DNA of 64,000 bases from an uncultured Bacilli bacterium (GCA_944333345.1 CALVKW010000001.1:5594-69593); one strand, 5' to 3'; shown: positions 4,157 to 43,098, counted from the first letter of the stretch. The notes: generated from the sequence alone by a model not told the origin. A program made the numbers and translations.

Positions 4157-5089
4157 CTATACCTCTCTTCTAAATAATTTATTATAACTATTTTTATATA
4201 ACACTTTATCAATATCTTCTTCTGTAAAAGTATCCTTCAATAAAGCTCTAATTTGCTTACCAACCATACCATAATCAAAAATCTGTATATCATCCTCATC
4301 TCCAAATAAAGCTGGCCCAAATTTCATATCATCCGTAGAAACACCAATCGAGTCAATGCCAAGTAAGTCCCGAACATGAACGATATGCTCTACATACTTC
4401 TTAGAAAGTTCTTCTCTATCTTCACTCGAGGAGACAAATGGCCCATAAGAAACAAGTCCGATAACCGGTGATAATTCTTTTAAAGATAGTAACTGCTCAT
4501 CACTCAAATTTCTAGGATGAGAATATAAATCATAACAATTCGAATGACTAGCAATCACAGTAACATCTTTTCCCTTTCTTTTTTCTTCTTTTAAAAGCTC
4601 TATAGTATCAGAAAAAGTAGCAGGATTCATATGTGATAAATCAATACTAATACCTAAATCAACTGCTTTTTGAAGTAATTCTTTACCTTCATCAGTAAGT
4701 CCCTCTTGACTACGATTACCAGAGCCATAACGATTCTTATTATTCCATACAAGTAAAATATTACGAAGACCTAATTTATAAAGTTCCTCTAACTCTTCAG
4801 GACTATGAATAAAGTCACAACCTTCAATACTATAAACGACATCCAAATTAGGAAAATATTTTTGAAATAAATGAGTCGCTATACGAAATCTTTCAATAAC
4901 ATCAATAGGTTCAAACAACTCGCCCATCTCTTCCTTCATTTCCTCTTCATTCATAAAATAAAGATTAGCGACCACTCCTCGAACTTCATTTTCTTTATAA
5001 TACTCTTGCACTTTCTTTATATAACTAAAATCATTTTTCTTATAACAATAATATAAAATGGATAATAAATCATAATGTAAATCAATCAT
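4157..5089 (-). CDS. Membrane dipeptidase, peptidase family M19 (renal-dipeptidase-like). Likely start is MIDLHYDLL at 5089.
   Basis: M19 blocks are present: LLVWNNKNRYGSGN, GLTDEGKELL..LGISIDLSHMNP, VIASHSN..HPRNLSDEQL. Its stop codon lies 2 nt before the serS ATG, indicating translational coupling. Confidence 0.7.
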   Translation of the reverse strand: MIDLHYDLLSILYYCYKKNDFSYIKKVQEYYKENEVRGVVANLYFMNEEEMKEEMGELFEPIDVIERFRIATHLFQKYFPNLDVVYSIEGCDFIHSPEELEELYKLGLRNILLVWNNKNRYGSGNRSQEGLTDEGKELLQKAVDLGISIDLSHMNPATFSDTIELLKEEKRKGKDVTVIASHSNCYDLYSHPRNLSDEQLLSLKELSPVIGLVSYGPFVSSSEDREELSKKYVEHIVHVRDLLGIDSIGVSTDDMKFGPALFGDEDDIQIFDYGMVGKQIRALLKDTFTEEDIDKVLYKNSYNKLFRREV

Positions 5090-5101
5090 AAAACCATCTC
5101 C

Positions 5102-5325
5102 TAAAAACAAAAAAAGAACAGTACAAGGAGTGCAAATGCACGGTACCATCCTTTTTTTTACTCAAAGTGTAACGAACTTCTCCGGAATAATTCATCTATA
5201 GAGTAGATAAATAAGTCTTTAATATCGTTTCCACCAACCACGATTTCTCTCTAATTAAAGTTTCTTATTATTAGTTCTAATCATCGATTTGTTAATAGTA
5301 TATACCATTTTTTACAAATTATCAA
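5102..5325 (-). promoter_or_regulatory. Candidate T-box riboswitch leader (promoter, T-box motif and intrinsic terminator) upstream of the dipeptidase-serS operon
   Basis: On the minus strand the motif AAAAAAGGAUGGUACCGUG matches the T-box consensus AAUUAGGGUGGUACCGCG in 11 of 13 core positions. It overlaps the 5' arm of a long hairpin (GGAUGGUAC...GUACUGUUC) followed by a U-run, placed immediately before the RBS AGGAGAUGG and the ATG. A sigma-A-like promoter sits upstream: TTGATA, 17-nt spacer, TATACT. Serine codons occur in the leader (UCU-A, UCC-G). Confidence 0.55.
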
Positions 5326-6476
5326 TCTTTTTTACAGGTATTAACATATTCAGGCATTTGAACACTATCCATCTTCTCTATTTCACTCATATGAAGCAAT
5401 TTAGAATCTACATTATCAAAACCATACTCTCCATCAGTAAGAGTAACAAAATACTGATAATTATTTTTCTTTTTAACAACTCTAATATATCCTTTTAGTT
5501 TCCCTCCATTCATAGAAGAACGGATAGGAAGAAATGAATACATGGTTAAATCACTAGCATTAGAGAATGGAATATAATACTCTCCATCTTTCTCTGTAAT
5601 CATATTACCATCACAATTATAAATACCATCTACAACATCTGTGTTAACTGTATTAACGAAAGAACTGACATCTAAAACATAAAATATTTCTCTGCAAATA
5701 TATGCAGTTGGTGTAAAGGCAAATCCCAAAAAAACTAAAAAGAACAGTATAGAATAAACAAAAGCTGGTATTTGAGCATTTCTTCTTTTCCCACTAGTGA
5801 CAAACTGTGGATACTTTTCACCATTCCCTTCATAAACAGCTCTATCATCGATAGCGATAATAGGTAGCATAACAAAAGGGAAAAACAAAGTAAGCCAACC
5901 ACTTTTACCAAAAACTCTTCCCAAGCGATAATTTGCATATAACGCATAAATCTCTCCAAAAATGGGAATAAGTAAAAATAAAAATTTCCATCCATTACCT
6001 ACGGCAATATCAAAATAAGCATATTGACTATAAAATGGTATTAAAGGAGTAAACCCAGAATACCCCCCCTTCATATAAATAGCGGAATTAACGATGATAA
6101 AAAAGGTTACAATAAAATATATAATACAAACAACGAAAAGAAAGCTGAGAGAATAATTTAACCAAAAATAAGCAAGTCCTCCTAAAATGATAGTAAAAAG
6201 TAGCAACAAAAGAATTGCCGATTTAGTATCAATAAAACCCTTCTTATTTTTAGTCTTTGTCTCATAAGTTCTACCAGCAAACTCAACAGTATCAACTTCA
6301 TGTTTCTTAGGATCATTATAATCTTGATTAGCTTTATCAAACTCTTCCGGCGTAATATAGGTTTTCATTTTCTGGTTATCCGGATGATCATAATTCAAAG
6401 CACCACACTTCATGCAATATCTTTGCTTAGAATCCATCTCAGCACCACATCTAGGACAAATCATATCAAACACCAC
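5322..6476 (-). CDS. Polytopic membrane protein with an N-terminal zinc ribbon (CPRCGA..CMKCGA)
   Basis: CxxC..CxxC motif at the N-terminus followed by multiple hydrophobic helices. Confidence 0.5.
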   Translation of the reverse strand: MVFDMICPRCGAEMDSKQRYCMKCGALNYDHPDNQKMKTYITPEEFDKANQDYNDPKKHEVDTVEFAGRTYETKTKNKKGFIDTKSAILLLLLFTIILGGLAYFWLNYSLSFLFVVCIIYFIVTFFIIVNSAIYMKGGYSGFTPLIPFYSQYAYFDIAVGNGWKFLFLLIPIFGEIYALYANYRLGRVFGKSGWLTLFFPFVMLPIIAIDDRAVYEGNGEKYPQFVTSGKRRNAQIPAFVYSILFFLVFLGFAFTPTAYICREIFYVLDVSSFVNTVNTDVVDGIYNCDGNMITEKDGEYYIPFSNASDLTMYSFLPIRSSMNGGKLKGYIRVVKKKNNYQYFVTLTDGEYGFDNVDSKLLHMSEIEKMDSVQMPEYVNTCKKD

Positions 6477-8592: not shown

Positions 8593-9001
8593 TTTTCATT
8601 CCTCCTATTTTTTTAAATCAACTATATTTTCATCAAACAGGACTTTTTCACTCGTGGAAATCCTCTAACATTTGTATTTAACACATACCATTTTAAGCAA
8701 CATTCCAACTTATCTCTAGTTTTTCACTAGTAAAAATCCCACTTTTATAAATATTCCCAAGAAAAACAGAAGCTTTCCGTACTTCTCACTACTTGCCCAA
8801 AGTTAATCTCGAATCTGATTTTAAAATAAGTAACAAAATAGGTTCATGCTTCAGATGTTCATATCTCTGATCTGATTCTACTTATAATTCAATAACGACT
8901 ACAACACAATTATTTATCTGCTCCTAGTTTTCATTCCTTACCAATCATGTCTTTTCTGTTTGTTTACAGATTTGAGGTGTTCTCTTTCTTTTACACGCTT
9001 T

Positions 9002-10069
9002 TCATTTTCTTTCAATATATTTCATAATCTCCTCTGTAATTACTTCATACCCTTCATCAGAAATATGTAACCCATCTTTAGTATATTCATTCTTAATTTT
9101 AACCTCAGAAGACTCAGAATCAACTAATAGAGAAAACAAATCAATATAAGTAATATTTTCATCTTTACAGTACTTCTCCAACTCTTGATTAATTTCAACG
9201 ATTTCTTCATTAGTACGATTACTAGCAGCTGGTCTTTCTTCATCCACCGGATAAATAGATTCTAAATAGATTTCCGCATATGGACGATTCTTCTGTATTT
9301 CTTCAATAATTTTCTTAATATGAGAAACAATATCATCAATAGATAATTTCTGATCAATATCATTGGTACCAATAAGTAAAAATATTTTAGAAGGATTATA
9401 TTGATATACCCTTTTCCCCATATCATCCAAAATATCTTCAGTAACATTTCCTTGCACCCCACTATTAACAACAGGCATATCAGGATAATATACATCCAAA
9501 TCATAAAATTCGGTAATAGAATCTCCTAAAAACAAATAATTATCATCAACTATCACAACTTCTTTTTCTTTCGTAACAACCTTAGGTTCTACAGGACGAG
9601 TAAGTAAATAAATACAAAAGGCTAATATTCCTAACAACAGAATTACCACAAAAAGAAAAATAATAAATCTAAAAACTCTTAATTTAGGTTTTCTACGTTT
9701 CTCAATAGACTCTCTACGTATTTTATCCTGTTCATAAGACTTATTTAAATCTTTAATAATTTTTTCCTTTTTCTTTTTTTTATTTTCAACAAAACTAGTA
9801 TCTAACTCATCAGAAAATGTCATATCATCAAAATTAAAAATTTGCTGTTTCGTAATACTATAATCATCTGGATATAAATTCTGATGACGATTCTCACGAC
9901 TATATTGACTTTTAGTATTATTTCCATCTCTTTTATTATCATTAGATTTATGATACTTATTATTCTTATAACTATTTTTAGAATAATTCTTCTTAGAATT
10001 GTTATTGTGATTTCTATTTTGCTCTATTTTTTTATTATTACTACCCATAATATCACATCCCATACGCAA
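9002..10069 (-). CDS. SGNH/GDSL-family hydrolase with an N-terminal Asn/Lys-rich low-complexity region and one transmembrane helix
   Basis: The FLGDSITE block (GDS motif) is followed by a GTNDI block. The N-terminal 130 aa are N/K-rich, followed by a hydrophobic anchor. Confidence 0.7.
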   Translation of the reverse strand: MRMGCDIMGSNNKKIEQNRNHNNNSKKNYSKNSYKNNKYHKSNDNKRDGNNTKSQYSRENRHQNLYPDDYSITKQQIFNFDDMTFSDELDTSFVENKKKKKEKIIKDLNKSYEQDKIRRESIEKRRKPKLRVFRFIIFLFVVILLLGILAFCIYLLTRPVEPKVVTKEKEVVIVDDNYLFLGDSITEFYDLDVYYPDMPVVNSGVQGNVTEDILDDMGKRVYQYNPSKIFLLIGTNDIDQKLSIDDIVSHIKKIIEEIQKNRPYAEIYLESIYPVDEERPAASNRTNEEIVEINQELEKYCKDENITYIDLFSLLVDSESSEVKIKNEYTKDGLHISDEGYEVITEEIMKYIERK

Positions 10070-10139
10070 AAAAAGGTAAAACTACCTTTTACTTTAAATC
10101 TAATTTGATTATACTAATTTTGTTTCAAATAGTCAATTT

Positions 10140-11330
10140 CTAAGTAAAGAAAAAATGAAAATTTCCCGATACAGAATCAACAATTCCTTTAATAAAGAGT
10201 TGTATAAAAGAAAGAGAATTTACATCATCAGAAACAGTTAAATTACCTTCTGTAATCTTCTTACCATCAACTTTTACAACAACTCTTCCAACAACATCAC
10301 CTTTTTTAACTGGCAAATCCAAGGAATTAAATTCTAAATCATAAGAATATTTTTGCTTTGTACTAGATTTTTCAGTTAAAACTCCGATATCTGAAATAGG
10401 AACAAGAGAAACTTCTGTTTTTGTCGCTTTATCCAAAGGAATCGTCTTCAAAACTTCCCCTTTTCCTTTTACTAAATCCATCTGATAATGATTAAATCCA
10501 TAATCAAGCAAACTCATAGCTTCTTGATTCCTAATATTACTATTTTCTTCTCCTAAAACAACGGCAATAAATCGAAGATTATCTTTTTTGGCAGTAGCAG
10601 CAAGACAATATTTTGCCGCATCCGTATGTCCTGTTTTTAATCCATCAGCACCTTCATAAAATCGTACTAATTTATTAGTATTGACAAGCCAAAATTTATT
10701 TGCAGTATCTTCTCTTAAATAATCTTCATAAACGGATGAAAATTCTAAAATCTCAGGATAATTAATCACCAATTCTCTAGCAATCATTGCCATATCACGA
10801 GCACTAGAATAATGTCCTTCTTCATCAAGACCAGTACAATTTTTAAACACGGTATGCTCAAGTCCCAAATCTTTTACTTTTTGATTCATTTGTTTAACAA
10901 ATGCCGCCTCACTTCCCGCCAAAACCTCGGCCATCTGAACCGTAGCATCATTAGCACTAGCCATAGAGATTCCTTTAAATAAATCCCTAACACTAATTTC
11001 TTCACCAACACTTAAATAAATTTGTGATCCTCCCATATCAGCAGCAGTCTGACTAACAGTAACAACATCTTCCCAAGAAATTTTCTCATCACGAATAGCA
11101 TCTAATATTAAAATTTGTGCCACCATTTTCGTCATAGAAGCAACCGCCACTTCTTTATCAGCTTCTTTCTCAAAAACAATTTTACCTGTATTAGCCTCCA
11201 TCAAAACTCCACTGACAGCACCAGGAATTAACTCCGTTTCAACGCTTTCCTCTTCTAAAGCACTAACTGATAAAATATTAACAGAAAAAAGACACAAAAA
11301 ACATAAAAATATAACTAACCCTTTTCTCAT
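10140..11330 (-). CDS. Serine-type D-Ala-D-Ala carboxypeptidase (PBP5/DacA/DacB family)
   Basis: Signal peptide is present. The SxxK motif is ASMTK, and SxN and KTG blocks are consistent with the low-molecular-weight PBP class. Confidence 0.8.
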   Translation of the reverse strand: MRKGLVIFLCFLCLFSVNILSVSALEEESVETELIPGAVSGVLMEANTGKIVFEKEADKEVAVASMTKMVAQILILDAIRDEKISWEDVVTVSQTAADMGGSQIYLSVGEEISVRDLFKGISMASANDATVQMAEVLAGSEAAFVKQMNQKVKDLGLEHTVFKNCTGLDEEGHYSSARDMAMIARELVINYPEILEFSSVYEDYLREDTANKFWLVNTNKLVRFYEGADGLKTGHTDAAKYCLAATAKKDNLRFIAVVLGEENSNIRNQEAMSLLDYGFNHYQMDLVKGKGEVLKTIPLDKATKTEVSLVPISDIGVLTEKSSTKQKYSYDLEFNSLDLPVKKGDVVGRVVVKVDGKKITEGNLTVSDDVNSLSFIQLFIKGIVDSVSGNFHFFFT

Positions 11331-11398
11331 ACATCCCTCCACTATTTTTTATGTAAATATGAAAAAAATTATACATAAATTGAGAAAAGAATGATATT

Positions 11399-12271
11399 AT
11401 GAAACTAGGTGATACAATGAAAAAGAAAAAAAGAAAATTAAAAAAGAAAGTAAAAATAGTTTTAACTTTTCTAATATGCATCATAATCATCACAACAACA
11501 ATCTTAATATCTACAAAGAATGAAAGTAAAACACCAGAAAAAACTTTAACTCAAGAAGAAGAGTTAAAAAAGATACCATACTATAAAGAAGAAAATAAAG
11601 ATAGATATATATCCTATCAAAAAGAAAATAAAAATTTAGACACAGAAGAAATCGTTACAAATGTAAATATTGGAATTGATAAACCATATTATACAAATAC
11701 AAAACAAGCAGAAAACTTAAATACAAATATTATTTTAGTAAATAAATATAATTATCTAACAGAAGACTACGTACCAGAAAATCTAGAGGAGATTGACACA
11801 ACATATGCAAGAAGCGGAATGCAATTAGTTAGTGAAGCAAAAGAAGCATTTGAAACATTAGCTGAAAATGCCAAAGAGGATAACATGACAATTATCGCAA
11901 TGTCCAGCTACAGAAGTTATGACTATCAAGTAGATTTATATAATAGATATGTAGAAACAGATGGAAAAGAAGCTGCAGATACCTATTCAGCAAGAGCTGG
12001 GTTTTCAGAACATCAAACAGGTCTTGTAGTAGATGTCTATAACGGAGATTTACCTTACACCTCATTTGAAGAAACAGAAGAATTTGAATGGATGCAAGAA
12101 AATGCTTATAAATACGGATTTATTTTAAGATTTCCAAAAGATAAAACCGATATTACAGGGTATGAATATGAATCATGGCACTATCGCTATGTAGGAAAAG
12201 AAGTAGCAAAATATATTCATGATAACCATTCAACTTTAGAAGAATATATCGCAAAAAAGGTTGAGAACTAA
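11399..12271 (+). CDS. VanY-type D,D-carboxypeptidase (peptidase M15B), membrane-anchored. The true start may be the ATG at 11417.
   Basis: SSYRSYDYQ, SEHQTGLVVD and ESWHYRYVG blocks are typical of VanY/M15B. An N-terminal K-rich segment is followed by a transmembrane helix. Confidence 0.8.
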   Translation: MKLGDTMKKKKRKLKKKVKIVLTFLICIIIITTTILISTKNESKTPEKTLTQEEELKKIPYYKEENKDRYISYQKENKNLDTEEIVTNVNIGIDKPYYTNTKQAENLNTNIILVNKYNYLTEDYVPENLEEIDTTYARSGMQLVSEAKEAFETLAENAKEDNMTIIAMSSYRSYDYQVDLYNRYVETDGKEAADTYSARAGFSEHQTGLVVDVYNGDLPYTSFEETEEFEWMQENAYKYGFILRFPKDKTDITGYEYESWHYRYVGKEVAKYIHDNHSTLEEYIAKKVEN

Positions 12272-12286
12272 TTCTCAACCTTTTCA
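12259..12286 (+). terminator. Intrinsic terminator (GGTTGAGAA-CTAA-TTCTCAACC followed by TTTTC), bidirectional between convergent genes
   Basis: A perfect 9-bp inverted repeat followed by a T-run overlaps the stop codon of the VanY-type gene. Confidence 0.5.
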
Positions 12287-12864
12287 TTATCAAATTTTCT
12301 CTTAAAAAACATAAACAAATGATAAAAGAATGTAACAACAATCCAAAGTAAAAATATCAAATTACTAAATTGCACAACAGCTAAAATCGGTTCATTCTGA
12401 TATAAGGTAACAGGATCCGCTAAATCCATTTGACCAATGACAGTAAAACTGACAAACATAGAGAAAAACAAAAAGACAAATGACATACAAAAATAATTAA
12501 AAACTTTCTTAAATGTTGTTAATTTTTTACTAAACAAGGTATAAATAAATATAAAAATAGAAAGTACAAATAGAAAAAAGAAAACAATAGTAGAAGGGAA
12601 ATAATAATAATCCATAACTTTCATTATAAAAGAATCAATACAAGTAAGTGCATAAGAAGAAAAAGAAAATATAAAAACAAAAATAGAGAAGATAGCAAAA
12701 ATAAAAAGAGCAATAGGAACTACTTTATTTTTTATTCTAATATTAAAAACAACTAATAAAAATAATAAAAGAAAAAACAAAAATATTTCTATAAACATAA
12801 AAGATGAAAATAATGATTGAAAAATTATTTTCATCTTATCAAATAACCCTAGTTCCATATACAC
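12268..12864 (-). CDS. Polytopic membrane protein of unknown function, last gene of the adhesin-sortase cluster
   Basis: Five or six hydrophobic helices. It lies 8 nt downstream of the sortase gene on the same strand. Confidence 0.45.
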   Translation of the reverse strand: MYMELGLFDKMKIIFQSLFSSFMFIEIFLFFLLLFLLVVFNIRIKNKVVPIALFIFAIFSIFVFIFSFSSYALTCIDSFIMKVMDYYYFPSTIVFFFLFVLSIFIFIYTLFSKKLTTFKKVFNYFCMSFVFLFFSMFVSFTVIGQMDLADPVTLYQNEPILAVVQFSNLIFLLWIVVTFFYHLFMFFKRKFDNEKVEN

Positions 12865-12872
12865 ACCTCCTA

Positions 12873-13547
12873 TTATACCAACTCAGCAATATAAATAGTT
12901 TGCGTTGTATCATCATTTTTAGTACATGTAATTAACGTTAAAGTAGTACGATTATAATTTCTATAAATTGCTACTTTTCCAGTTTTAGGCACTGTATAAA
13001 TATTAACGATTTGATATCTATATCTTTGACCATGATACGTAATATAAGCATAATCACCAATATTCAACCTATATAAATATGCAAAAAACGAAATATAGGC
13101 ATCACCAGAATGAGCCATTAACATTAAATTACCATTAACAACATCAGGCATACTAGATCCTTGAACTGTTGATACATTATACTGAATACTATTATATCGG
13201 GAATCAGTATTATAAAACCCTCTTTTTAATCCTATCTTAGGGATTTCAAGCACCCCTGCATATCTACTATAATCAATCTCTTGTTCTGATTGTTGATAAA
13301 CTGTTCCATCAGAAACATTATCAACAGTTGGAACATCAATTTCATTCTCTTCACTCATCGGTATATCCATCCCTAAACTTGCAATCTCCATATTTGCAAA
13401 TACCTGATTTTTTAAAAATACCAAATGATTATAAGAAAGAACAAATAATCCTATAAATACAAGGAAAGAGCCGAGTAATAATAACTGACTCTTTCTAAGT
13501 ATTCTTTTATTATTGTTGCTGTCTTTCTTTTGGTTTCGTGTTAGCAT
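12873..13547 (-). CDS. Sortase (transpeptidase, SrtB-like). The likely start is the ATG at 13547, since the track ORF begins at a GTG.
   Basis: N-terminal membrane anchor, a conserved His in LMLMAHSGD, the TLxTC active-site motif (TLTLITC), and a downstream Arg. Confidence 0.8.
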   Translation of the reverse strand: MLTRNQKKDSNNNKRILRKSQLLLLGSFLVFIGLFVLSYNHLVFLKNQVFANMEIASLGMDIPMSEENEIDVPTVDNVSDGTVYQQSEQEIDYSRYAGVLEIPKIGLKRGFYNTDSRYNSIQYNVSTVQGSSMPDVVNGNLMLMAHSGDAYISFFAYLYRLNIGDYAYITYHGQRYRYQIVNIYTVPKTGKVAIYRNYNRTTLTLITCTKNDDTTQTIYIAELV

Positions 13548-14748
13548 AAATGATACCCACTCCACACAATAATACTATTAGACCAACAAAGTAAACAGAT
13601 TGTGCAAGAGTCATTCCAGTATCAGGCACTTCTGGAGTATAATCAATACTTATAGGTACATAAGCAGAGTGTGTAGTTTCTACCGTAAATACAGTACTAA
13701 CTGTTTGAGCACCAGTAGCTCGATAATAATATCCATCATAACCTCTGAATGTTCCTTCAACAGCGATTTGAATATCTTTTGTTTCTTCAGTAACTTTATC
13801 AACAGGAACCCTAACATAGAATCTTGCAAGATTCGTAGTATCTTCTACTTCTTGTCCATTTTCGTTTACTAGAATGGTTCCTTCTGGAGCTCCATCAATT
13901 CTAACTGTAAAATGATCTATATTATTAGGAGCAGTATTAGAAACGGTAATTAATGAAGTTTGATAGTACTTCTCATCTTCCGTCATAGAAATCTCATTAT
14001 TTGCTTTACTAATTTGCATTTGACCATTAGCAGAAGTCGTATTTTTCGCATTTTCAACTAAAGGTACGATATAAGTATCATAGAAAGTAGCGGTTGCTGT
14101 TGCTTGCGTATCAGAAGTATAACATCCATTTACATCACAAACATGATAATCACCACCATCTTGCCAATAAATTCTAGTGGCCACTCTCATATTATCCAAA
14201 TTACCAGTAGTTTGATCATTGGTAATATTACTATTATCGGCAGCCCCTGTCTGATACAAATATTCCCAAATAGCAGCTTGCGTAATCCAAGCTTGAACCT
14301 CATCTGCGAACTCATTACCAGAGCTATCCTTAAATGTTACATGAGGAGAAGAATTAGCCATCACATATAGCAATCCTTGATCAGTAATTTGTTCACTCTT
14401 AGATAAAGTTATACCACCTTGATAACCAATATCTCTTTCCAAACAGAAAATAGGAATACCGCTTTCTGTAGAATACATCTGTATTGGATAGGCTGAACCA
14501 GCACCACCATTAGAACCATAAATAACAACACCCGTTGGATTAGCAGTTTTAAAACTATCACCCAAATCCGTCTCAGGAATCGTATCGGGAGCAGCATAAG
14601 AAATATTTCCACTTCCAAGACCGATTACTAAGAAAGAAAAAAACGACACTAAAAACATCGAAATAGTTAACTTTTTAGATAACTGTGATTTAAAAAGTTG
14701 TTGAAATATAGACTGTTTTTTATTGTTTTCCATATATATTTTCTCCAT
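13510..14748 (-). CDS. Cell-wall-anchored surface adhesin with a thioester domain (TED) and a sortase sorting signal
   Basis: Signal peptide is present. A Cys lies in the F-C-L-E context and there is a TQAAIW (TQxA[IV]W) motif, both characteristic of internal thioester (Cys-Gln) adhesin domains. The C-terminus reads EVPDTG, then a hydrophobic stretch, then a KPKERQQQ tail. Confidence 0.65.
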   Translation of the reverse strand: MEKIYMENNKKQSIFQQLFKSQLSKKLTISMFLVSFFSFLVIGLGSGNISYAAPDTIPETDLGDSFKTANPTGVVIYGSNGGAGSAYPIQMYSTESGIPIFCLERDIGYQGGITLSKSEQITDQGLLYVMANSSPHVTFKDSSGNEFADEVQAWITQAAIWEYLYQTGAADNSNITNDQTTGNLDNMRVATRIYWQDGGDYHVCDVNGCYTSDTQATATATFYDTYIVPLVENAKNTTSANGQMQISKANNEISMTEDEKYYQTSLITVSNTAPNNIDHFTVRIDGAPEGTILVNENGQEVEDTTNLARFYVRVPVDKVTEETKDIQIAVEGTFRGYDGYYYRATGAQTVSTVFTVETTHSAYVPISIDYTPEVPDTGMTLAQSVYFVGLIVLLCGVGIIYANTKPKERQQQ

Positions 14749-14805
14749 AATACACCACCTTTATATTATTATTATAACATAGTTTTTTATTTTTCAATCT
14801 TTTTT

Positions 14806-16032
14806 TTATTTTATTAAAAAAATGTCTTCTAATCTTTGTAAACGAGGAGCCTTAGTATAATAAATTTTAGCTAAACTATCACCTTTTTTTATTATATCTC
14901 CCACTTGTACTAACAACTCAATTCCAACGCCATAATCAATAGCATCTTCTTTAGACACACGACCAGCTCCCAAAGAAACAGAAAGCTTACCTAACTCTAT
15001 AGCAGAAATCCCCACAATCTTACCACTTTTAGAAGCCTTTAATACTTTCACTTTTTTACTTACAGAAAGATTTTTTAAATTTCCATGTTGTGCATCAACA
15101 AGCTCTAAAAATTTTTGATAAGCGTCCCCAGATTGAATAGACTGTCTAACCATATCCATGGCATCTTCTTTAGGAACCCCTTTTGACATACATAACATTT
15201 CGCTAGCAAGTTCTAAACATAATTTTGTCAAATTATTATCTCTTTCTTCTCCTTTTAGAACTTTCATAGCTTCCATTACTTCCAAACTATTACCGATGCA
15301 ATATCCTAACGGTGTATCCATATCACTAATAATAGTATGTACCTCTTTTTGATAAACTTTTCCTATTTTAATAACTAAATCACTTAATTTTTCAGCATCT
15401 TCCTTGGTCTGTAAAAGTGCACCATTACCAACCTTAATATCGATTAATATCTTATCGGCCCCTCCAGCGATTTTTTTACTCATAATACTAGAAGCAATAA
15501 GTGGAATAGAAGAGACTGTTCCCGTAACATCACGCAAAGCATAAATCTTTTTATCCATAGGTGCAAGACTAGCTGTCTGCCCTGTAATAACAATGCCAAT
15601 ATCTTGAACTTGGTGCATTACTTCCTCTTCAGATAAATCAATTCGAAATCCAGGAATACTTTCCAACTTATCAATAGTACCTCCAGTATATCCTAGCCCT
15701 CTACCACTCATTTTTAAAACAGGAACACCAAGGCTTGCAACAATAGGAGCAATAATTAAAGTTGTTTTATCACCAATCCCACCAGTAGAATGTTTATCCA
15801 CTGTAATAGCATGCAAAAAACTCAAATCTAAAGTATCTCCACTATCAATAAATACCTTGGTCAAAGCAAAAGTTTCTTCTTCGCTCATGCCTTGAATACA
15901 AATAGCCATAAGCAAACTAGACATCTGATAATCTTTAACTTTCCCCTCTAAATAACCATTAAAAAAAGTATCTAATTCGTGAAAACTTAACTCTTCTCCT
16001 AATCTTTTTTTATTTATAATATCAACAATCAT
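14806..16032 (-). CDS. pdp: Pyrimidine-nucleoside (thymidine) phosphorylase
   Basis: HSTGGIGDKTT phosphate-binding motif within typical family blocks. The length is 408 aa. Confidence 0.9.
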   Translation of the reverse strand: MIVDIINKKRLGEELSFHELDTFFNGYLEGKVKDYQMSSLLMAICIQGMSEEETFALTKVFIDSGDTLDLSFLHAITVDKHSTGGIGDKTTLIIAPIVASLGVPVLKMSGRGLGYTGGTIDKLESIPGFRIDLSEEEVMHQVQDIGIVITGQTASLAPMDKKIYALRDVTGTVSSIPLIASSIMSKKIAGGADKILIDIKVGNGALLQTKEDAEKLSDLVIKIGKVYQKEVHTIISDMDTPLGYCIGNSLEVMEAMKVLKGEERDNNLTKLCLELASEMLCMSKGVPKEDAMDMVRQSIQSGDAYQKFLELVDAQHGNLKNLSVSKKVKVLKASKSGKIVGISAIELGKLSVSLGAGRVSKEDAIDYGVGIELLVQVGDIIKKGDSLAKIYYTKAPRLQRLEDIFLIK

Positions 16033-16436
16033 AAAATCTCCTTTCGAAATACCGTAGTTTCTCGAACCTGAAACCCTAATTTATGATACAAATGATGGGC
16101 AGCAACTCTAGATGGATTAGAAGTTAGCTCTAAATAAGAAATATTCTTATCCTGACATAACTGAAAAACATACTGAAATAACTTACTAGCAATTCCCTGA
16201 TTTTGATAAGCACTTCTAACACAGACATACTCTACAAAATAAAATTTTTGATTGCGTATAGGATCAATACAATAATGCAGCAATAAATGACCAATTACCT
16301 TCTCATTAGAAACAGCAATCAATTGAGCATCATCTTTAGAAAGCTTACCACTCATAGAAACACCAAAAGCTTCTTCTAATAATTCATTTAAAGATTGTAA
16401 ATATTGTTCTTCAAAATGCTTTATTTCCATATACAC
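16029..16436 (-). CDS. GNAT-family N-acetyltransferase
   Basis: Acetyl-CoA binding block VRSAYQNQGIASKL (the Q/RxxGxG/A motif). The ORF overlaps the pdp start by 4 nt. Confidence 0.75.
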   Translation of the reverse strand: MYMEIKHFEEQYLQSLNELLEEAFGVSMSGKLSKDDAQLIAVSNEKVIGHLLLHYCIDPIRNQKFYFVEYVCVRSAYQNQGIASKLFQYVFQLCQDKNISYLELTSNPSRVAAHHLYHKLGFQVRETTVFRKEIL

Positions 16437-16526
16437 CCTACCTTAGTATTACTATCATATCAAAAAAAATATATGAATTCTAGTACTTTTCCAAATAATT
16501 ATCCAAAAGAAAAGAAGAAAAAGAAT

Positions 16527-16865
16527 TTATTCTTTCTCCTCTTTTGTTTTAGATGAAGTTAAAAATGTAACTTTTTCTCCAATCACCTCCATAATATTCT
16601 CTTTTTTCTCACCCTTTTCTACAATCCGTGATTGTAATCTTCCCTTTAAACCGACAATATCTCCTTTTTTACAGTACTCTTTTGTATTTTCTGCTACATT
16701 ATCAAAGATAAGACAACGAATAAAATCCGTATCATAATTACCTTCCATATTTTTAAAACTTCTAGGAATAGCAAGGGTAAGAGTTGAAAATTTTTTACCA
16801 TTATCATTCTTCTTTAACTCAAGATCATACACAATCCTACCAACCAAGACCACCTGATTTAACAT
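16527..16865 (-). CDS. ssb: Single-stranded DNA-binding protein, short SsbB-like form
   Basis: MLNQVVLVGRI start and OB-fold blocks. At 112 aa it lacks the long acidic tail. Confidence 0.8.
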   Translation of the reverse strand: MLNQVVLVGRIVYDLELKKNDNGKKFSTLTLAIPRSFKNMEGNYDTDFIRCLIFDNVAENTKEYCKKGDIVGLKGRLQSRIVEKGEKKENIMEVIGEKVTFLTSSKTKEEKE

Positions 16866-17023
16866 ATCTCACCTCCTTTCTCCTCCATCATAGAAAAAGA
16901 AAGAAAAAAAGACAAACAACGAAAACATAAAAAGTACACAAAACAACAAAACAAAAAGAAGATACCCTATATAAAAAACCTTCTTTTCAAAACAAACTAT
17001 AACCAAATAAATAACTTTACTAA

Positions 17024-18223
17024 TTAGGTAACAATTTGAAAAACCTTTTTACAATTTCTTAAAGCCGCAACTAAAATATCAATTTCCTCTTTTGTATTAT
17101 AAAAATACAAACTAATTCTTACAGTAGATGGAATTCCCATATCTTCCTTCAACATTTTACTACAGTGATTACCTGCTCTCACACAAATATGAAAGGAATT
17201 TAAGTATTTAGAAACATCCATACTAGATACTCCTTCCACATTAAAAGCTAAAATTCCACTTTCAGAATCAGAATTATATAAAATAATAGATGGAATATCT
17301 TTTAATTTCGCAACTAAATATTTTTTTAATTCCTGTTCATACTGACTAATAGAATCCATACCAATTTCTAACAAATATTCAATAGCACTTTTAAGTCCTA
17401 AAACCTCTCCAATAGGAGGAGTACCCGCTTCAAACTTTACAGGACCATCTTTTAATTGATATTTTCCATCACTAGTAAAGGATAAATTCATACCACCGCC
17501 ATAAAAGACAGGAACCATTTCGTTTAATAATTCTTCTCTAGCAACCAGCACCCCAACACCAGTAGGAGCACACATTTTATGTCCAGAAAAACTTAAAAAA
17601 TCAATAAAACTATTTTGAAAATCAATACTCATATGAGGAACACTTTGGGCACCATCCACATGAAATAAAATATTCCCATCACGACACAACTTACCTATAC
17701 GAACAATATCTCTTACATCACCAATTACATTCGTAACATGAGCTAAAGAAATAACTTTAGTACGCTCCGTAATACTTTGAACGACATCTTTATAATCGAT
17801 AGAATAATTAGAATTAAGAGGAATATAACGAACTACAATTCCAATCTCTTCAGCAAGTCTCAGCCAAGGCAAAATATTAGATGCATGTTCTGCTTTTGTA
17901 AGCAAAACTTCATCACCAGGTTTTAAATGATATTTCATATATCCAAAGACAACCAAATTAATAGAGTGAGTAGCCCCACTAGTAAAAATAACTTCTTTGG
18001 CACTAGCACAATGAACAAATTTTTGAACAGTAAACCGAGCTTCATCATATAAATAATCGGAAATAATAGCACTATCATAAATCCCTCGGTGAATATTAGC
18101 AGTATAATACCTATAATAATCATCCACAGCATCAATAACACACTTCGGTTTTAATGTAGTAGCAGCATTATCAAAATAAATAATAGATTTATTATTTAAA
18201 ATAGGAAAGTCTAAACGCTTCAT
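17024..18223 (-). CDS. Cysteine desulfurase (class V aminotransferase, SufS/CsdA-like group II)
   Basis: PLP-lysine block SGHKMCAPTGVGVL and N-terminal FDNAATT. The RBS GAGGGGTGGG precedes the MKRLDFP start. Confidence 0.85.
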   Translation of the reverse strand: MKRLDFPILNNKSIIYFDNAATTLKPKCVIDAVDDYYRYYTANIHRGIYDSAIISDYLYDEARFTVQKFVHCASAKEVIFTSGATHSINLVVFGYMKYHLKPGDEVLLTKAEHASNILPWLRLAEEIGIVVRYIPLNSNYSIDYKDVVQSITERTKVISLAHVTNVIGDVRDIVRIGKLCRDGNILFHVDGAQSVPHMSIDFQNSFIDFLSFSGHKMCAPTGVGVLVAREELLNEMVPVFYGGGMNLSFTSDGKYQLKDGPVKFEAGTPPIGEVLGLKSAIEYLLEIGMDSISQYEQELKKYLVAKLKDIPSIILYNSDSESGILAFNVEGVSSMDVSKYLNSFHICVRAGNHCSKMLKEDMGIPSTVRISLYFYNTKEEIDILVAALRNCKKVFQIVT

Positions 18224-18320
18224 AGTCCCACCCCTCAAAGATATAATATCTTATGAAAGAAAAGAAAAAGAGACTATAACATTAAACTATTTCAAAAGAA
18301 AAAAGTATCAAAATTGATAC

Positions 18321-19694
18321 TTAAGCTACTCTTTTATATTGCACCTCAGTACTTCCATAAGAGGCAGGTGCAGTTAACTCTGCACGCATTTTTCTAAAAG
18401 CATCTTCTAAACTAACAACTCTTTGTTGTAATCTATCGTTTTCACGTTGTAGTCTTTCATTTTCAGCTTTTAACTCATCAACTTCATGGCCTTGTTGTTG
18501 AGCACTTTGAAGTCGTTCTTGCAATGTTAATATTTTTAAATCCTTCTGTTTTAACTCTTGTTGTTGTTTTTTATTTTCTTGAACTAATCCACCAACAGCA
18601 GTAACCACATCATCAAAAGAATCACCACTATTACTATTTGATTCCAAAGAAGTGTTTTCATCTTTTTTACTTTCTTCTTCTACATCATTAGTATCTGTAG
18701 AATTCAAAGAAACTACTCCTAATTGATCATTATTATCAGAATTGGAACGAATGATAGGAATATCACCAAAACTACTTTCTCTTGGCTTTTTAGATTCAAA
18801 AATATCATTTTGTTCTTTTTCTGCAAAAATGGAATCAGGCTTAACCTCTGATAAAGGTTGAGCAAACGAATCAACTTTAGCAGGTTGTTCAACAGGCACT
18901 ATCTTCTTCTCTTCTACAACTTTCTCCGTTTCCAAATTAGTAGAATTATTCTCCATAGGTAAAGAAGAATTTAAAGCTGTATCAATAGTTTCCTTAGGAA
19001 CTTCTACACTAGCAATATCGATTGGAGGCTGCTTCGTCGTTGGCTGCTCTGGTTCTACAACAGGAAGAGGTCCTGCAAAATTATCATTAAATACAGGAGC
19101 ATTACGTGCAACTTCAACAATTGGAGAATCAGCAACATTAACACTACAATAAAATGAATCATCCGTCATACAAATAAAACTATAGTATTTATTATCTAAT
19201 ATATTTTTACCATCAATCGTATAAAGTGTTCCTTCAGAAAATCTATCATTTAAAAGAAATTTTCCAGTACCATGTGTTTCTTTATTTATTCTATCTTTAA
19301 TATTATTATCCGTATCAACCATTCTAGTAGCGGCGTTAGGATCATCTCGAGAAGCTATAGCATCAAGTACAGTCTTTGTTTGAGCTATATTTCTAATAAC
19401 TAATAAATATTTATCATCAATAATTCGAATATCCCTATTTTCAAAAGGAATAATAATATTACCCTGCTTACTAATAAGGCCAAGCGATGTTTTTGGAATT
19501 TCAGGATCTATCGCTTCTTTTAATAAAGGAGAAGCAATTAAAAAGTCATTATCCAAATTTCTATTATTTAATTTATAATAAGTTTCTTGTGTATTTCCAG
19601 TTGTAATTGTGACATAATTACAATAAAGATCGGACATTCCCTTATAAGTAGAAATTTTCCCCCTATTAAATACTACTTGCCTTCCCTCATGCAT
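18321..19694 (-). CDS. Hypothetical protein with a structured N-terminal domain, a P/E/S-rich linker and a C-terminal coiled coil
   Basis: No catalytic motifs. The C-terminal 80 aa are heptad-like and rich in Q, E, L and R. Confidence 0.5.
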   Translation of the reverse strand: MHEGRQVVFNRGKISTYKGMSDLYCNYVTITTGNTQETYYKLNNRNLDNDFLIASPLLKEAIDPEIPKTSLGLISKQGNIIIPFENRDIRIIDDKYLLVIRNIAQTKTVLDAIASRDDPNAATRMVDTDNNIKDRINKETHGTGKFLLNDRFSEGTLYTIDGKNILDNKYYSFICMTDDSFYCSVNVADSPIVEVARNAPVFNDNFAGPLPVVEPEQPTTKQPPIDIASVEVPKETIDTALNSSLPMENNSTNLETEKVVEEKKIVPVEQPAKVDSFAQPLSEVKPDSIFAEKEQNDIFESKKPRESSFGDIPIIRSNSDNNDQLGVVSLNSTDTNDVEEESKKDENTSLESNSNSGDSFDDVVTAVGGLVQENKKQQQELKQKDLKILTLQERLQSAQQQGHEVDELKAENERLQRENDRLQQRVVSLEDAFRKMRAELTAPASYGSTEVQYKRVA

Positions 19695-19833
19695 AACAAC
19701 ACACCACCTTATTATATACTTCTAATCATAATAATATCACAACTCCCCTTTGAAAACAACTATTTTCCAAACAAATTTCTAAAATAAAATTGCAAAAAAC
19801 TACAGAAATAGATACAATAATATTGGTGATAAA

Positions 19834-42744: not shown

Positions 42745-43098
42745 ACAAATTAATATAAATAAGCCATGTTCTGTTCCTGTTCCCAGGCGACAAACATTTA
42801 TCTACCATTACTGGTCCCTAACTCCATTCGTTTCTTTTGTTAGAGCTCCCCTACCAAATTTGGGTTTCTCGCTCGCGGGGTTTACCACGTTTCACTCTTT
42901 TGTTTCCAAAAGCCTCGTCACTGCGGCACGTTATGGAATAAATCATATCAAAGACTTAGATTATCTCCCGCCGTTAGCAATAGCTACCTTAGGTTATTTT
43001 TTCCCTAAGCACGAACACTACAATCATCACAGACTGTGCGAGCATGGACTTTCCTCTAATATTAAAATATCAGCGTTTGTCTATATATTAATTGTCAT
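42745..43098 (-). ncRNA. rnpB: RNase P RNA, type B (Bacillus-type)
   Basis: The minus-strand sequence contains universally conserved blocks also found in B. subtilis rnpB: GAGGAAAGUCCAUGCUCGCAC, GGUAAACCCC..GAGCGAGAAACCCAAAUUUGGUAGGGGA, and 3' ACAUGGCUUA. The segment is locally GC-rich and sits directly downstream of gpsB, as in Bacillus. The ends are approximate. Confidence 0.85.

Follow-up and report, generated by a model that had tools for sequence, protein, structure and literature searches.

A three-gene cassette of an uncultured gut Bacilli bacterium pairing a predicted thioester-domain surface protein with a sortase that carries Gln at the canonical Arg position

The Cassette and Its Genes

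The stretch of DNA considered here comprises 64,000 nucleotides from an uncultured Bacilli bacterium (GCA_944333345.1, CALVKW010000001.1:5594-69593) and is referred to below, at its full length, as the window. At 12268-14748, on the minus strand, it contains three co-directional open reading frames (ORFs) arranged as an operon-like cassette: gene 1 encodes a secreted protein with a thioester domain (TED) and a C-terminal sorting signal, gene 2 a membrane-anchored sortase, and gene 3 a polytopic membrane protein. The three ORFs had been pointed out in a sequence-only reading of the window and are indeed present, as are the motifs which that reading listed for the 412-residue protein—that is, F-C-L-E at residues 101-104, TQAAIW at 156-161, EVPDTG at 373-378, a hydrophobic helix at 381-403, and a KPKERQQQ tail. 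Three further properties were absent from it: the sortase lacks the canonical Arg, the adhesin lacks a stalk, and sequence conservation in the sorting-signal helix is unusually high. The features of the cassette are as follows (window coordinates).

14768-14797, minus strand: promoter-like site TTGAAA ... TGTTATAAT with an extended -10 (consensus scan, pattern match only)
14754-14760, minus strand: gene 1 ribosome-binding site, AGGTGG (from the sequence)
13510-14748, minus strand: gene 1, 412 residues, secreted stalk-less Class II TED protein with C-terminal sorting signal (Pfam, AF2, Foldseek)
14593-14748, minus strand: long Sec-type signal peptide, residues 1-52 (family conservation)
14443-14445, minus strand: Cys102 (P-I-F-C-L-E-R), predicted thioester Cys in a [YFL]C-Phi-zeta motif (conservation, BaTIE alignment)
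14263-14280, minus strand: TQAAIW, residues 156-161, TQxxPhiW helper motif in helix alpha2 (conservation; role from PMC6194298)
13705-13707, minus strand: Gln348 (G-A-Q-T-V-S), predicted thioester Gln at the tip of a long beta-hairpin (covariation, BaTIE offset)
13615-13629, minus strand: VPDTG pentapeptide, residues 374-378 (from the sequence)
13513-13608, minus strand: hydrophobic helix, residues 381-403 (AQSVYFVGLIVLLCGVGIIYAN), and positive tail TKPKERQQQ (sequence, conservation)
12873-13547, minus strand: gene 2, 224 residues, membrane-anchored Gln-type sortase (Pfam Sortase, homolog-supported start)
13110-13112, minus strand: catalytic His146 (L-M-A-H-S-G-D) (invariant in the subfamily; aligns to SrtA His120)
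12924-12926, minus strand: catalytic Cys208 (T-L-T-L-I-T-C) (alignment, subfamily invariance)
12900-12902, minus strand: Gln216 (T-T-Q-T-I-Y-I-A-E-L-V), at the canonical Arg position, start of strand beta8 (MAFFT, HMMER)
12268-12858, minus strand: gene 3, 196 residues, polytopic membrane protein (ORF; no family match)

The promoter-like site sits in the 57-nt gap between a pyrimidine-nucleoside phosphorylase gene and gene 1. For gene 2, a mechanical ORF call places the start at GTG 13565, and the homologs begin at M7 of that call, which is ATG 13547 and has a GGAG ribosome-binding site upstream. The overlap of the sortase start with the 3′ end of the adhesin gene, noted from the sequence alone, was found to span 38 nt from ATG 13547 and 56 nt from GTG 13565. 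The most likely start of gene 3, at 12858, is an ATG located 14 nt past the sortase stop and preceded by a GGAGG ribosome-binding site.

A Sortase with Gln at the Catalytic Arg Position

Gene 2 matches the Pfam Sortase family (PF04203) over its whole length with 58 bits (cut-off 26.6). It has an N-terminal transmembrane helix at approximately residues 22-44 and no C-terminal anchor, with the protein ending at strand β8. The sequence-only reading had called it an SrtB-like sortase with a TLTLITC active site, and of this description the sortase identity and the motif hold, but the class does not: no class A or B model occurs among the NCBIfam matches at E ≤ 0.1, and no SrtB structure among the 25-33 PDB matches of the sortase, the best matches being to classes C and D and far under their cut-offs. 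Class C, the best by NCBIfam (NF033745, 61.8 against a cut-off of 160), was also rejected, on the grounds of this score, the absence of a DP[WFY] lid, and the absence of a C-terminal membrane anchor; the region aligned to the lid of the class C structure 24rr is a non-conserved acidic linker with no conserved lid motif. Class D was rejected with both scores far under the cut-offs (32.3 against 165 for NF033746 and 41.4 against 140 for NF058671). Because the family profile scores similarly against its nearest solved structures, class C 24rr (65.5 bits), Clostridium perfringens SrtD 4d70 (62 bits), and Bacillus anthracis SrtA 2kw8 (56.9 bits), the family appears roughly equally distant from the three sortase classes and is best regarded as unclassified.

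Conservation was followed in two samples. In one, 1.84 billion cluster representatives (50% identity) were searched exhaustively with phmmer, yielding 1794 matches, of which the 150 best (32-77% identity) were inspected; for the comparison of loci, one genome per species was scanned with the sortase-family alignment, giving at least 579 relatives, of which the best 80 loci were analyzed. The subfamily alignment shows full conservation of His146, Cys208, and Lys188-x-Gly190, and almost full conservation of Thr207, the residue before Cys208. Past the Cys of TLTLITC, the chain continues as TKNDDTTQTIYIAELV and then stops, with no Arg. The position of the Arg is instead occupied by Gln216, with MAFFT aligning R197 of Staphylococcus aureus SrtA (R-K-I-F-V-A-T-E-V) to this residue (Q-T-I-Y-I-A-E-L-V), and HMMER placing the family Gln opposite the catalytic Arg in B. 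anthracis SrtA. The alignment with 4d70 slips by one residue at its terminus; the position that it would offer instead, residue 215, varies across the family (T, K, R, S, and others), with Thr in the window protein. The subfamily alignment contains no invariant Arg at any position. The pattern C-x(6-9)-Q-[TIVS]-[IV]-x-I was present in nearly all full-length sequences among the 150 best matches, and Gln was found at the Arg position in all 80 genomic loci.

In substrate complexes of Streptococcus pyogenes SrtA, the Arg was observed to hydrogen-bond the P4 and P3 backbone carbonyls, and the Thr preceding the Cys to form the oxyanion hole; furthermore, an evolved SrtA with the Arg changed to Ser is an efficient transpeptidase of altered specificity (PMC9520033). 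Because this Arg-to-Ser variant is efficient and the oxyanion-hole Thr is kept here, activity of the Gln-type sortase is plausible by analogy. Current structural work assigns to the Arg the positioning of the substrate, not the stabilization of the oxyanion, and the Gln-type subfamily constitutes a natural experiment on this role.

The Thioester Domain and Its Predicted Cys-Gln Pair

A TED adhesin with a C-terminal sorting signal had been proposed for gene 1, and this proposal stood up to both family and structure comparison. Residues 100-178 match the Pfam TED model (PF08341) with 30 bits (gathering score 22). An AlphaFold2 (AF2) model built on 52 family members has a mean pLDDT of 76.6, with most of the folded region (60-370) above 80, and shows a TED fold; in a Foldseek search against the PDB, its only significant fold matches were two Class II TEDs, 6fwy (EfmTIE86-TED; E = 3.8e-12) and 6fwv (BaTIE; E = 1.2e-11), both at probability 1.0. 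The model contains a β-sandwich (244-315) and a hairpin (325-367, with strands 325-343 and 353-367), as in the Class II fold, and it is on account of the sandwich, the long hairpin, and the 6fwy and 6fwv matches that gene 1 is assigned to the Class II TEDs. Searching PDB sequences with a TED-family profile yielded nothing useful; it was single-sequence phmmer and the fold search that reached the Class II TEDs. The isopeptide or CnaB domains raised by the sequence-only reading were not detected, Pfam finding no CnaB, SpaA, or other stalk domain in gene 1. The last TED strand ends at residue 367 and the pentapeptide starts at 374, leaving approximately seven linker residues. Gene 1 is a stalk-less, minimal new member of the known TED family.

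The thioester pair was assigned from conservation among close homologs (121 sequences counted; 493 homologs found) and across the clade, for which 88 TED-family proteins from 79 related loci were aligned with the window protein to give 89 sequences. Cys102 is conserved in 121/121 close homologs and in 82/89 sequences across the clade, and aligns by phmmer to Cys71 of BaTIE. Gln348 is kept in 83/89 and is lost in six of the seven paralogs that lack Cys102. In BaTIE, the thioester is formed by Cys71 and Gln266 (PMC6194298), and by the offset of the phmmer alignment Gln266 falls within one residue of Gln348. On the basis of this covariation and of the position of the BaTIE pair, the predicted thioester pair of gene 1 is assigned as Cys102-Gln348.

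Other Gln residues were considered and rejected as partners. The sequence-only reading had taken the Gln of TQxA[IV]W as the thioester Gln; however, in Class II TED structures, helix α2 carries the TQxxPhiW Gln and Trp beside the bond, for which they are dispensable (PMC6194298), and the covariation likewise argues against Gln157. Both Gln157 and Trp161 are invariant (89/89), the paralogs without the Cys included, as befits the helper motif listed above. Gln263 is invariant in close homologs, but is present in only 57/89 across the clade and is Glu in BaTIE.

Seven loci carry extra tandem TED paralogs without the thioester Cys (L027, 4704-5708; L039, 3301-4275; L041, 4474-5691; L049, 4717-5691; L058, 4610-5782; L072, 5812-7020; and L079, 5836-7011). 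All of them keep TQxxPhiW, six are also without Gln348, and three (324-334 residues, ending in ..IKF) are without a sorting signal as well. Such paralogs might serve as decoys that do not react, as shaft-like subunits, or as secreted forms.

At the N-terminus of gene 1, the signal peptide has S.FQQ..K..LSKKL as its conserved n-region, followed by a hydrophobic core, and is probably cleaved at S-Y-A|A, a site placed by the -3/-1 rule and not by a predictor; in the AF2 model this segment has low pLDDT and a helix at 20-43. The n-region (14701-14748, residues 1-16, and residues 13-27) is unusually long and conserved, differs from the YSIRK motif, and may have a part in targeting.

The Sorting Signal and Its Conserved Helix

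The C-terminus of gene 1 is a full tripartite sorting signal, with VPDTG followed by a 23-residue hydrophobic helix and KPKERQQQ. No second sortase substrate, nor any other C-terminus of this kind, was found in the 64-kb window, and no NCBIfam model, LPXTG-anchor models included, matches gene 1. Among close homologs, the pentapeptides are VPDTS (72), VPDTG (30), VPSTG (8), VPNTS (7), and VPPTG (2), with a clade consensus of x-P-[D/N/S]-T-[G/S/A] in which the Thr is present in 85/85 and the Pro in 80/85.

The pentapeptide VPDTG had been thought to depart from known motifs. It is, however, identical to the sorting signal of the Streptococcus pneumoniae pilus subunit RrgC (PMC5640630, PMC2674936); related signals are VPPTG, EVPTG, and QVPTG in pilus subunits of group A streptococci (GAS), including the TED adhesin Cpa (PMC7900414), and LPDTS and LPDTA in the substrates of Bacillus subtilis YhcS (PMC11231552). 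The novelty would lie in the pairing of Gln-type sortases with V-P-x-T-x signals, not in VPDTG itself.

Mean pairwise identity over the region was compared among 85 clade members and amounts to 23% for the TED head, 30% for the β-sandwich and hairpin, 67% for the pentapeptide, 62% for the transmembrane helix of the sorting signal, and 45% for the tail. The rapid evolution of the head is as expected for a ligand-binding or immune-exposed surface. In the helix (13540-13608), Y386, G389, L393, G396, G398, Y401, and N403 are near-invariant, and G389-x6-G396-x-G398 is a pattern typical of helix packing. In ordinary LPxTG signals, the hydrophobic segment is not known to show sequence conservation. 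Genes 1 and 2 overlap only over residues 401-412 of the TED protein, and the GGAG site of the sortase falls in codons 395-397. Because the conservation of the helix exceeds what the overlap and this ribosome-binding site cover, it suggests that the helix is specifically recognized in the membrane, through contact with either the sortase anchor or gene 3.

Gene 3, a Membrane Protein Linked to the Sortase

The product of gene 3 had been described as a six-helix membrane protein. Its polytopic nature was borne out, but the number was not: hydropathy indicates approximately five hydrophobic transmembrane segments, and AF2 (pLDDT 75) seven helices, two of them short or amphipathic, so that about five transmembrane segments and one or two shorter helices are likely. 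Conserved motifs are FSSF, N39, Y.YFPS (84-89), LY.N, and Q.SN, with polar residues at S18, S19, Y153, Q163, and S165. Gene 3 has no match in Pfam or NCBIfam, nor do 34 relatives in Pfam, and Foldseek against the PDB gave nothing below E = 2.7; public records annotate it as hypothetical. A gene 3 homolog directly follows the sortase in 76/80 loci, the other four ending at a contig edge. At the distant locus L090, the 278-residue membrane protein encoded after the sortase is recovered by the gene 3 profile (E = 2e-10, although the composition bias is large) and shares the motifs DSF..YFP and LY.NE...Q.S. The strict linkage to the sortase argues that gene 3 is part of the sorting machine.

Distribution of the Cassette and Pairing with Substrates

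The best 80 loci are all from uncultured gut metagenome-assembled genomes (human, goat, rabbit, chicken, deer, and yak). These are labelled Bacilli, Mollicutes, Tenericutes, Mycoplasmatota, or Erysipelotrichaceae, with a few bins labelled Muribaculaceae or Acidaminococcus that are taken to be mislabelled or contaminated; the named relatives are Candidatus Faecimonas, equivalent to GTDB genus CAG-877 (family CAG-611, order RF39). In 79/80 loci, the gene directly upstream of the sortase belongs to the TED family and nearly always overlaps the sortase by 35-60 nt, and seven of the 80 contain two or three tandem TED paralogs. Across these genomes of RF39 type the cassette is fixed and inherited vertically as a unit, and it probably belongs to the core of RF39, an uncultured order of the gut.

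Gln-type sortases at 32-39% identity, found in unrelated contexts, also overlap upstream substrate genes, and the substrates end in V-P-x-T-x:

L090: TED plus three SpaA-type repeats, 601 residues; VPNTG; followed by a 278-residue membrane protein
L093: TED plus SpaA, 711 residues; VPSTG
L092: CnaB-like substrate; VPKTA; followed by TasA-like and SipW-like genes
L095 and L096: giant repeat protein; VPNTE
L089: VPNTS; the contig resembles a mobile element

That the sortase has a dedicated specificity other than LPxTG is therefore supported by the comparative data—that is, by the overlap of TED and sortase genes in the clade together with the distant V-P-x-T-x pairings. An altered specificity had already been proposed from the supposed novelty of VPDTG, and it is the proposal, not that argument, which survives.

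At L092, the segment downstream of the sortase (973-2109) encodes a TasA/camelysin-like protein and a SipW-like signal peptidase (..SGSMEP..). The signal peptide of the former (..GGTLAYFT..) resembles the SipW-dependent type. In its arrangement the locus is reminiscent of streptococcal pili with their SipA/LepA accessory. At L089 (1042-1692), the VPNTS-linked Gln-type sortase is followed by NikA-like and phage replication-organizer genes; some Gln-type sortases may be carried by mobile elements, like the TED adhesin of pLS20.

The His-Cys-Arg triad has been stated to be present in all sortases (PMC13257024), and the combination found here—a His-Cys-Gln sortase subfamily, V-P-x-T-x substrates, a conserved signal helix, and a membrane partner—contradicts that usual statement. 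The combination appears undescribed: no earlier description of Arg-less or Gln-type sortases, or of RF39 sortases, was encountered in the literature searched, although curated databases may already separate the subfamily.

Proposed Mechanism and Alternative Explanations

The cassette is probably a self-contained three-gene module for surface display, combining Sec export, a Cys102-Gln348 thioester, sortase cleavage, and attachment to the wall. Gene 1 would be exported via Sec, with its C-terminal helix holding the protein in the membrane, and Cys102 and Gln348 would form the internal thioester, which would be attacked by a target amine to give a covalent bond. The sortase, translationally coupled to its substrate, would recognize V-P-D-T|G; Cys208 and His146 would cleave after Thr377, the predicted site, and transfer the protein to a peptidoglycan precursor. 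The acceptor is most likely the amine of meso-diaminopimelic acid (m-DAP) in lipid II, RF39 being mostly predicted to have m-DAP peptidoglycan (PMC10868615), and the stalk-less TED would end up at the wall surface. The replacement of Arg by Gln would go with V-P-x-T-x specificity and not with loss of activity. Gene 3 may act as an obligatory membrane partner, with either gene 3 or the sortase anchor docking the signal helix and presenting or clearing it. The conserved helix and the obligatory membrane partner hint at a step of recognition that classical sortases are not known to have.

Several considerations weigh against such a module. Every characterized sortase needs the Arg, and Ala mutants are dead (PMC13257024, PMC9520033); a natural Gln enzyme might accordingly be slow or do something different. 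The ribosome-binding site of the sortase (GGAG, codons 395-397) may explain a little of the helix conservation. A TED with no stalk and a linker of some seven residues could be buried in a thick Gram-positive wall.

That no transpeptidation takes place is an unlikely alternative, in which the Arg-less sortase would be a pseudo-enzyme for binding or scaffolding, or only a hydrolase, and the TED would either stay in the membrane by its conserved helix, complexed with the sortase and gene 3, or be released. The subfamily-wide absence of the canonical Arg, with no other Arg invariant, would suit this explanation, as would a helix conserved like a functional transmembrane segment, unlike a disposable signal, and the reduced and partly incomplete wall synthesis of RF39 (PMC10868615). 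On the other hand, a dead enzyme would not be expected to retain His, Cys, the Thr preceding the Cys, and the TLxTC motif (TLTLITC here) down to approximately 32% identity, the SrtA variant with Ser for Arg is an efficient catalyst, and the pentapeptide is conserved like the helix, Thr (85/85) and Pro (80/85) included, indicating that the scissile site matters. Also improbable is assembly of a pilus or other polymer, with a class C-like polymerase joining TEDs or another pilin and the TED at the fiber tip. The window lacks a major-pilin gene, as do most of the 80 loci, and the locus here has a single substrate gene, although the two to three tandem TEDs of seven loci, some without the Cys and Gln, could be shaft or base subunits, the relative L006 has a SpaA-domain LPVTG protein nearby, and one distant locus pairs a Gln-type sortase with SipW-like and TasA-like genes. 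VPDTG, VPPTG, and EVPTG do mark streptococcal pilus subunits, but no YPKN-type pilin motif was seen in the TED family and no Lys is invariant there, the best being K117 (68/89). Similarly, the best class-level scores of the sortase are with class C models and structures, yet it lies far under the class C cut-off and has neither the DP[WFY] lid nor the C-terminal anchor.

A wider unit in which the cassette and the neighboring VanY and PBP5 carboxypeptidases together remodel the wall, with the carboxypeptidases, for example, preparing the acceptor stem peptide, is very improbable. Both enzymes act on stem peptides and both are frequently adjacent to the cassette (64/80 and 55/80 loci, respectively), but clade-wide synteny explains this adjacency, the VanY gene is convergent, the cassette of L006 is separated from it by an AbiE insertion, and that of L090 lies among unrelated genes.

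Beyond the display module itself, a broader proposal is possible but distinctly tentative. The His-Cys-Gln sortases might form a distinct, unrecognized class that is specialized for V-P-x-T-x and works as a multi-component machine, in which gene 3 would read the substrate helix as exosortase and rhombosortase systems read a whole C-terminal domain. This machine would perhaps be the main or only route of covalent display in the genome-reduced RF39, its cargo being a fast-evolving covalent “harpoon” directed at host mucus or partner bacteria.

RF39 is an abundant uncultured gut lineage with very small genomes, and the cassette provides a lead to its mode and target of attachment. Since class-specific and anchor models miss all three proteins, and databases leave them unnamed or hypothetical, surveys of sortases and adhesins will count too few of them. 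For the related orders RFN20 and ML615J-28, one survey took the lack of srtA/B orthologs as a sign of “reduced surface protein expression”. Gln-type sortases could also supply orthogonal V-P-x-T enzymes for sortase-mediated ligation.

Comparison with Known Systems

The Class II TIE proteins (BaTIE, 6fwv; EfmTIE86, 6fwy; SaTIE; and TIEpLS20) resemble gene 1 in having a signal peptide followed by a Class II TED with head, inserted β-sandwich, and hairpin, and in the [YFL]C-Phi-zeta Cys, TQxxPhiW helper, and late Gln, at a sequence identity of 13-16%. They differ in carrying a CnaB/SpaA stalk and LPxTG, whereas in gene 1 the TED runs directly into VPDTG. Gene 1 is served by its own adjacent sortase, but the TIE proteins by the housekeeping SrtA and TIEpLS20 by no sortase.

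The GAS pilus enzyme has been described as a class B sortase (PMC3019223). The S. pyogenes FCT pilus system (Cpa, SrtC1/SrtC2, and SipA/LepA) is similar to the cassette in its TED adhesin, V-P-type signal, co-encoded sortase, and accessory membrane protein. However, Cpa contains Class I TEDs and is linked to a major pilin, FctA, that has no counterpart here. The FCT accessory protein has been described as a signal-peptidase homolog, unlike the approximately five-helix gene 3 of no known family. RrgC of S. pneumoniae, with a pentapeptide identical to that of gene 1, is a pilus base subunit without a TED and is handled by class C sortases or SrtA with a Cys-His-Arg triad.

Class D sortases (YhcS, with YhcR LPDTS and YfkN LPDTA; SrtD 4d70) have signals of the form x-P-D-T-[S/A], like VPDTS/VPDTA in the clade, and are, as gene 2 is, small, dedicated, and anchored only at the N-terminus, with 4d70 being the second-best structural relative by profile (62 bits). 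In contrast to gene 2, however, their P4 residue is Leu, where Val or Ala occurs here, and the catalytic Arg is present (DRYIV in 4d70). We know of no membrane partner gene for class D sortases. In oral streptococci, the AbpA-SrtB locus likewise joins one adhesin with a novel signal to its own dedicated sortase in a unit of two genes, but the enzyme is of class B, the adhesin is unrelated to TEDs, and there is no third membrane gene (PMC4974636).

Genomic Neighborhood and Other Observations

The genes next to the cassette had been identified as a VanY-type carboxypeptidase and a DacB-like PBP forming a cell-wall-remodelling neighborhood. The gene identities were confirmed by Pfam (VanY, PF02557, 146 bits; PBP5-type Peptidase_S11, 253 bits), but the remodelling unit was not, the association being one of conserved synteny only. 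The VanY gene is convergent to the cassette and not co-transcribed with it. Across the clade, the order is SSB, GNAT, pyrimidine-nucleoside phosphorylase, cassette, VanY (convergent), PBP5, and GDSL, with the phosphorylase retained in 74/80 loci; the adjacency of VanY and PBP5 thus follows from vertical inheritance of the whole syntenic region. At L006, an AbiEi/AbiEii module is inserted between the cassette and VanY and leaves the cassette undisturbed, and the distant cassette of L090 is flanked by unrelated genes in a different chromosomal context; VanY and PBP were accordingly rejected as members of the system.

L006 also carries, between the SSB and GNAT genes, a 524-residue SpaA-domain protein with a canonical LPVTG (the L006 features are at 4643-6217 and 10809-12244). 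Both this protein and the AbiE module are absent from the window.

A class B bacterial RNase P RNA (285 bits) is present at 42755-43089 on the minus strand, consistent with a Bacillota origin, and is the sole Rfam match at gathering thresholds within the window. Over 1-64000, the G+C content is 24-37% and the GC skew is negative nearly throughout; in the region 9000-19700, most genes are on the minus strand. The low G+C content, negative skew, and strand bias fit a single replichore of a small AT-rich genome.

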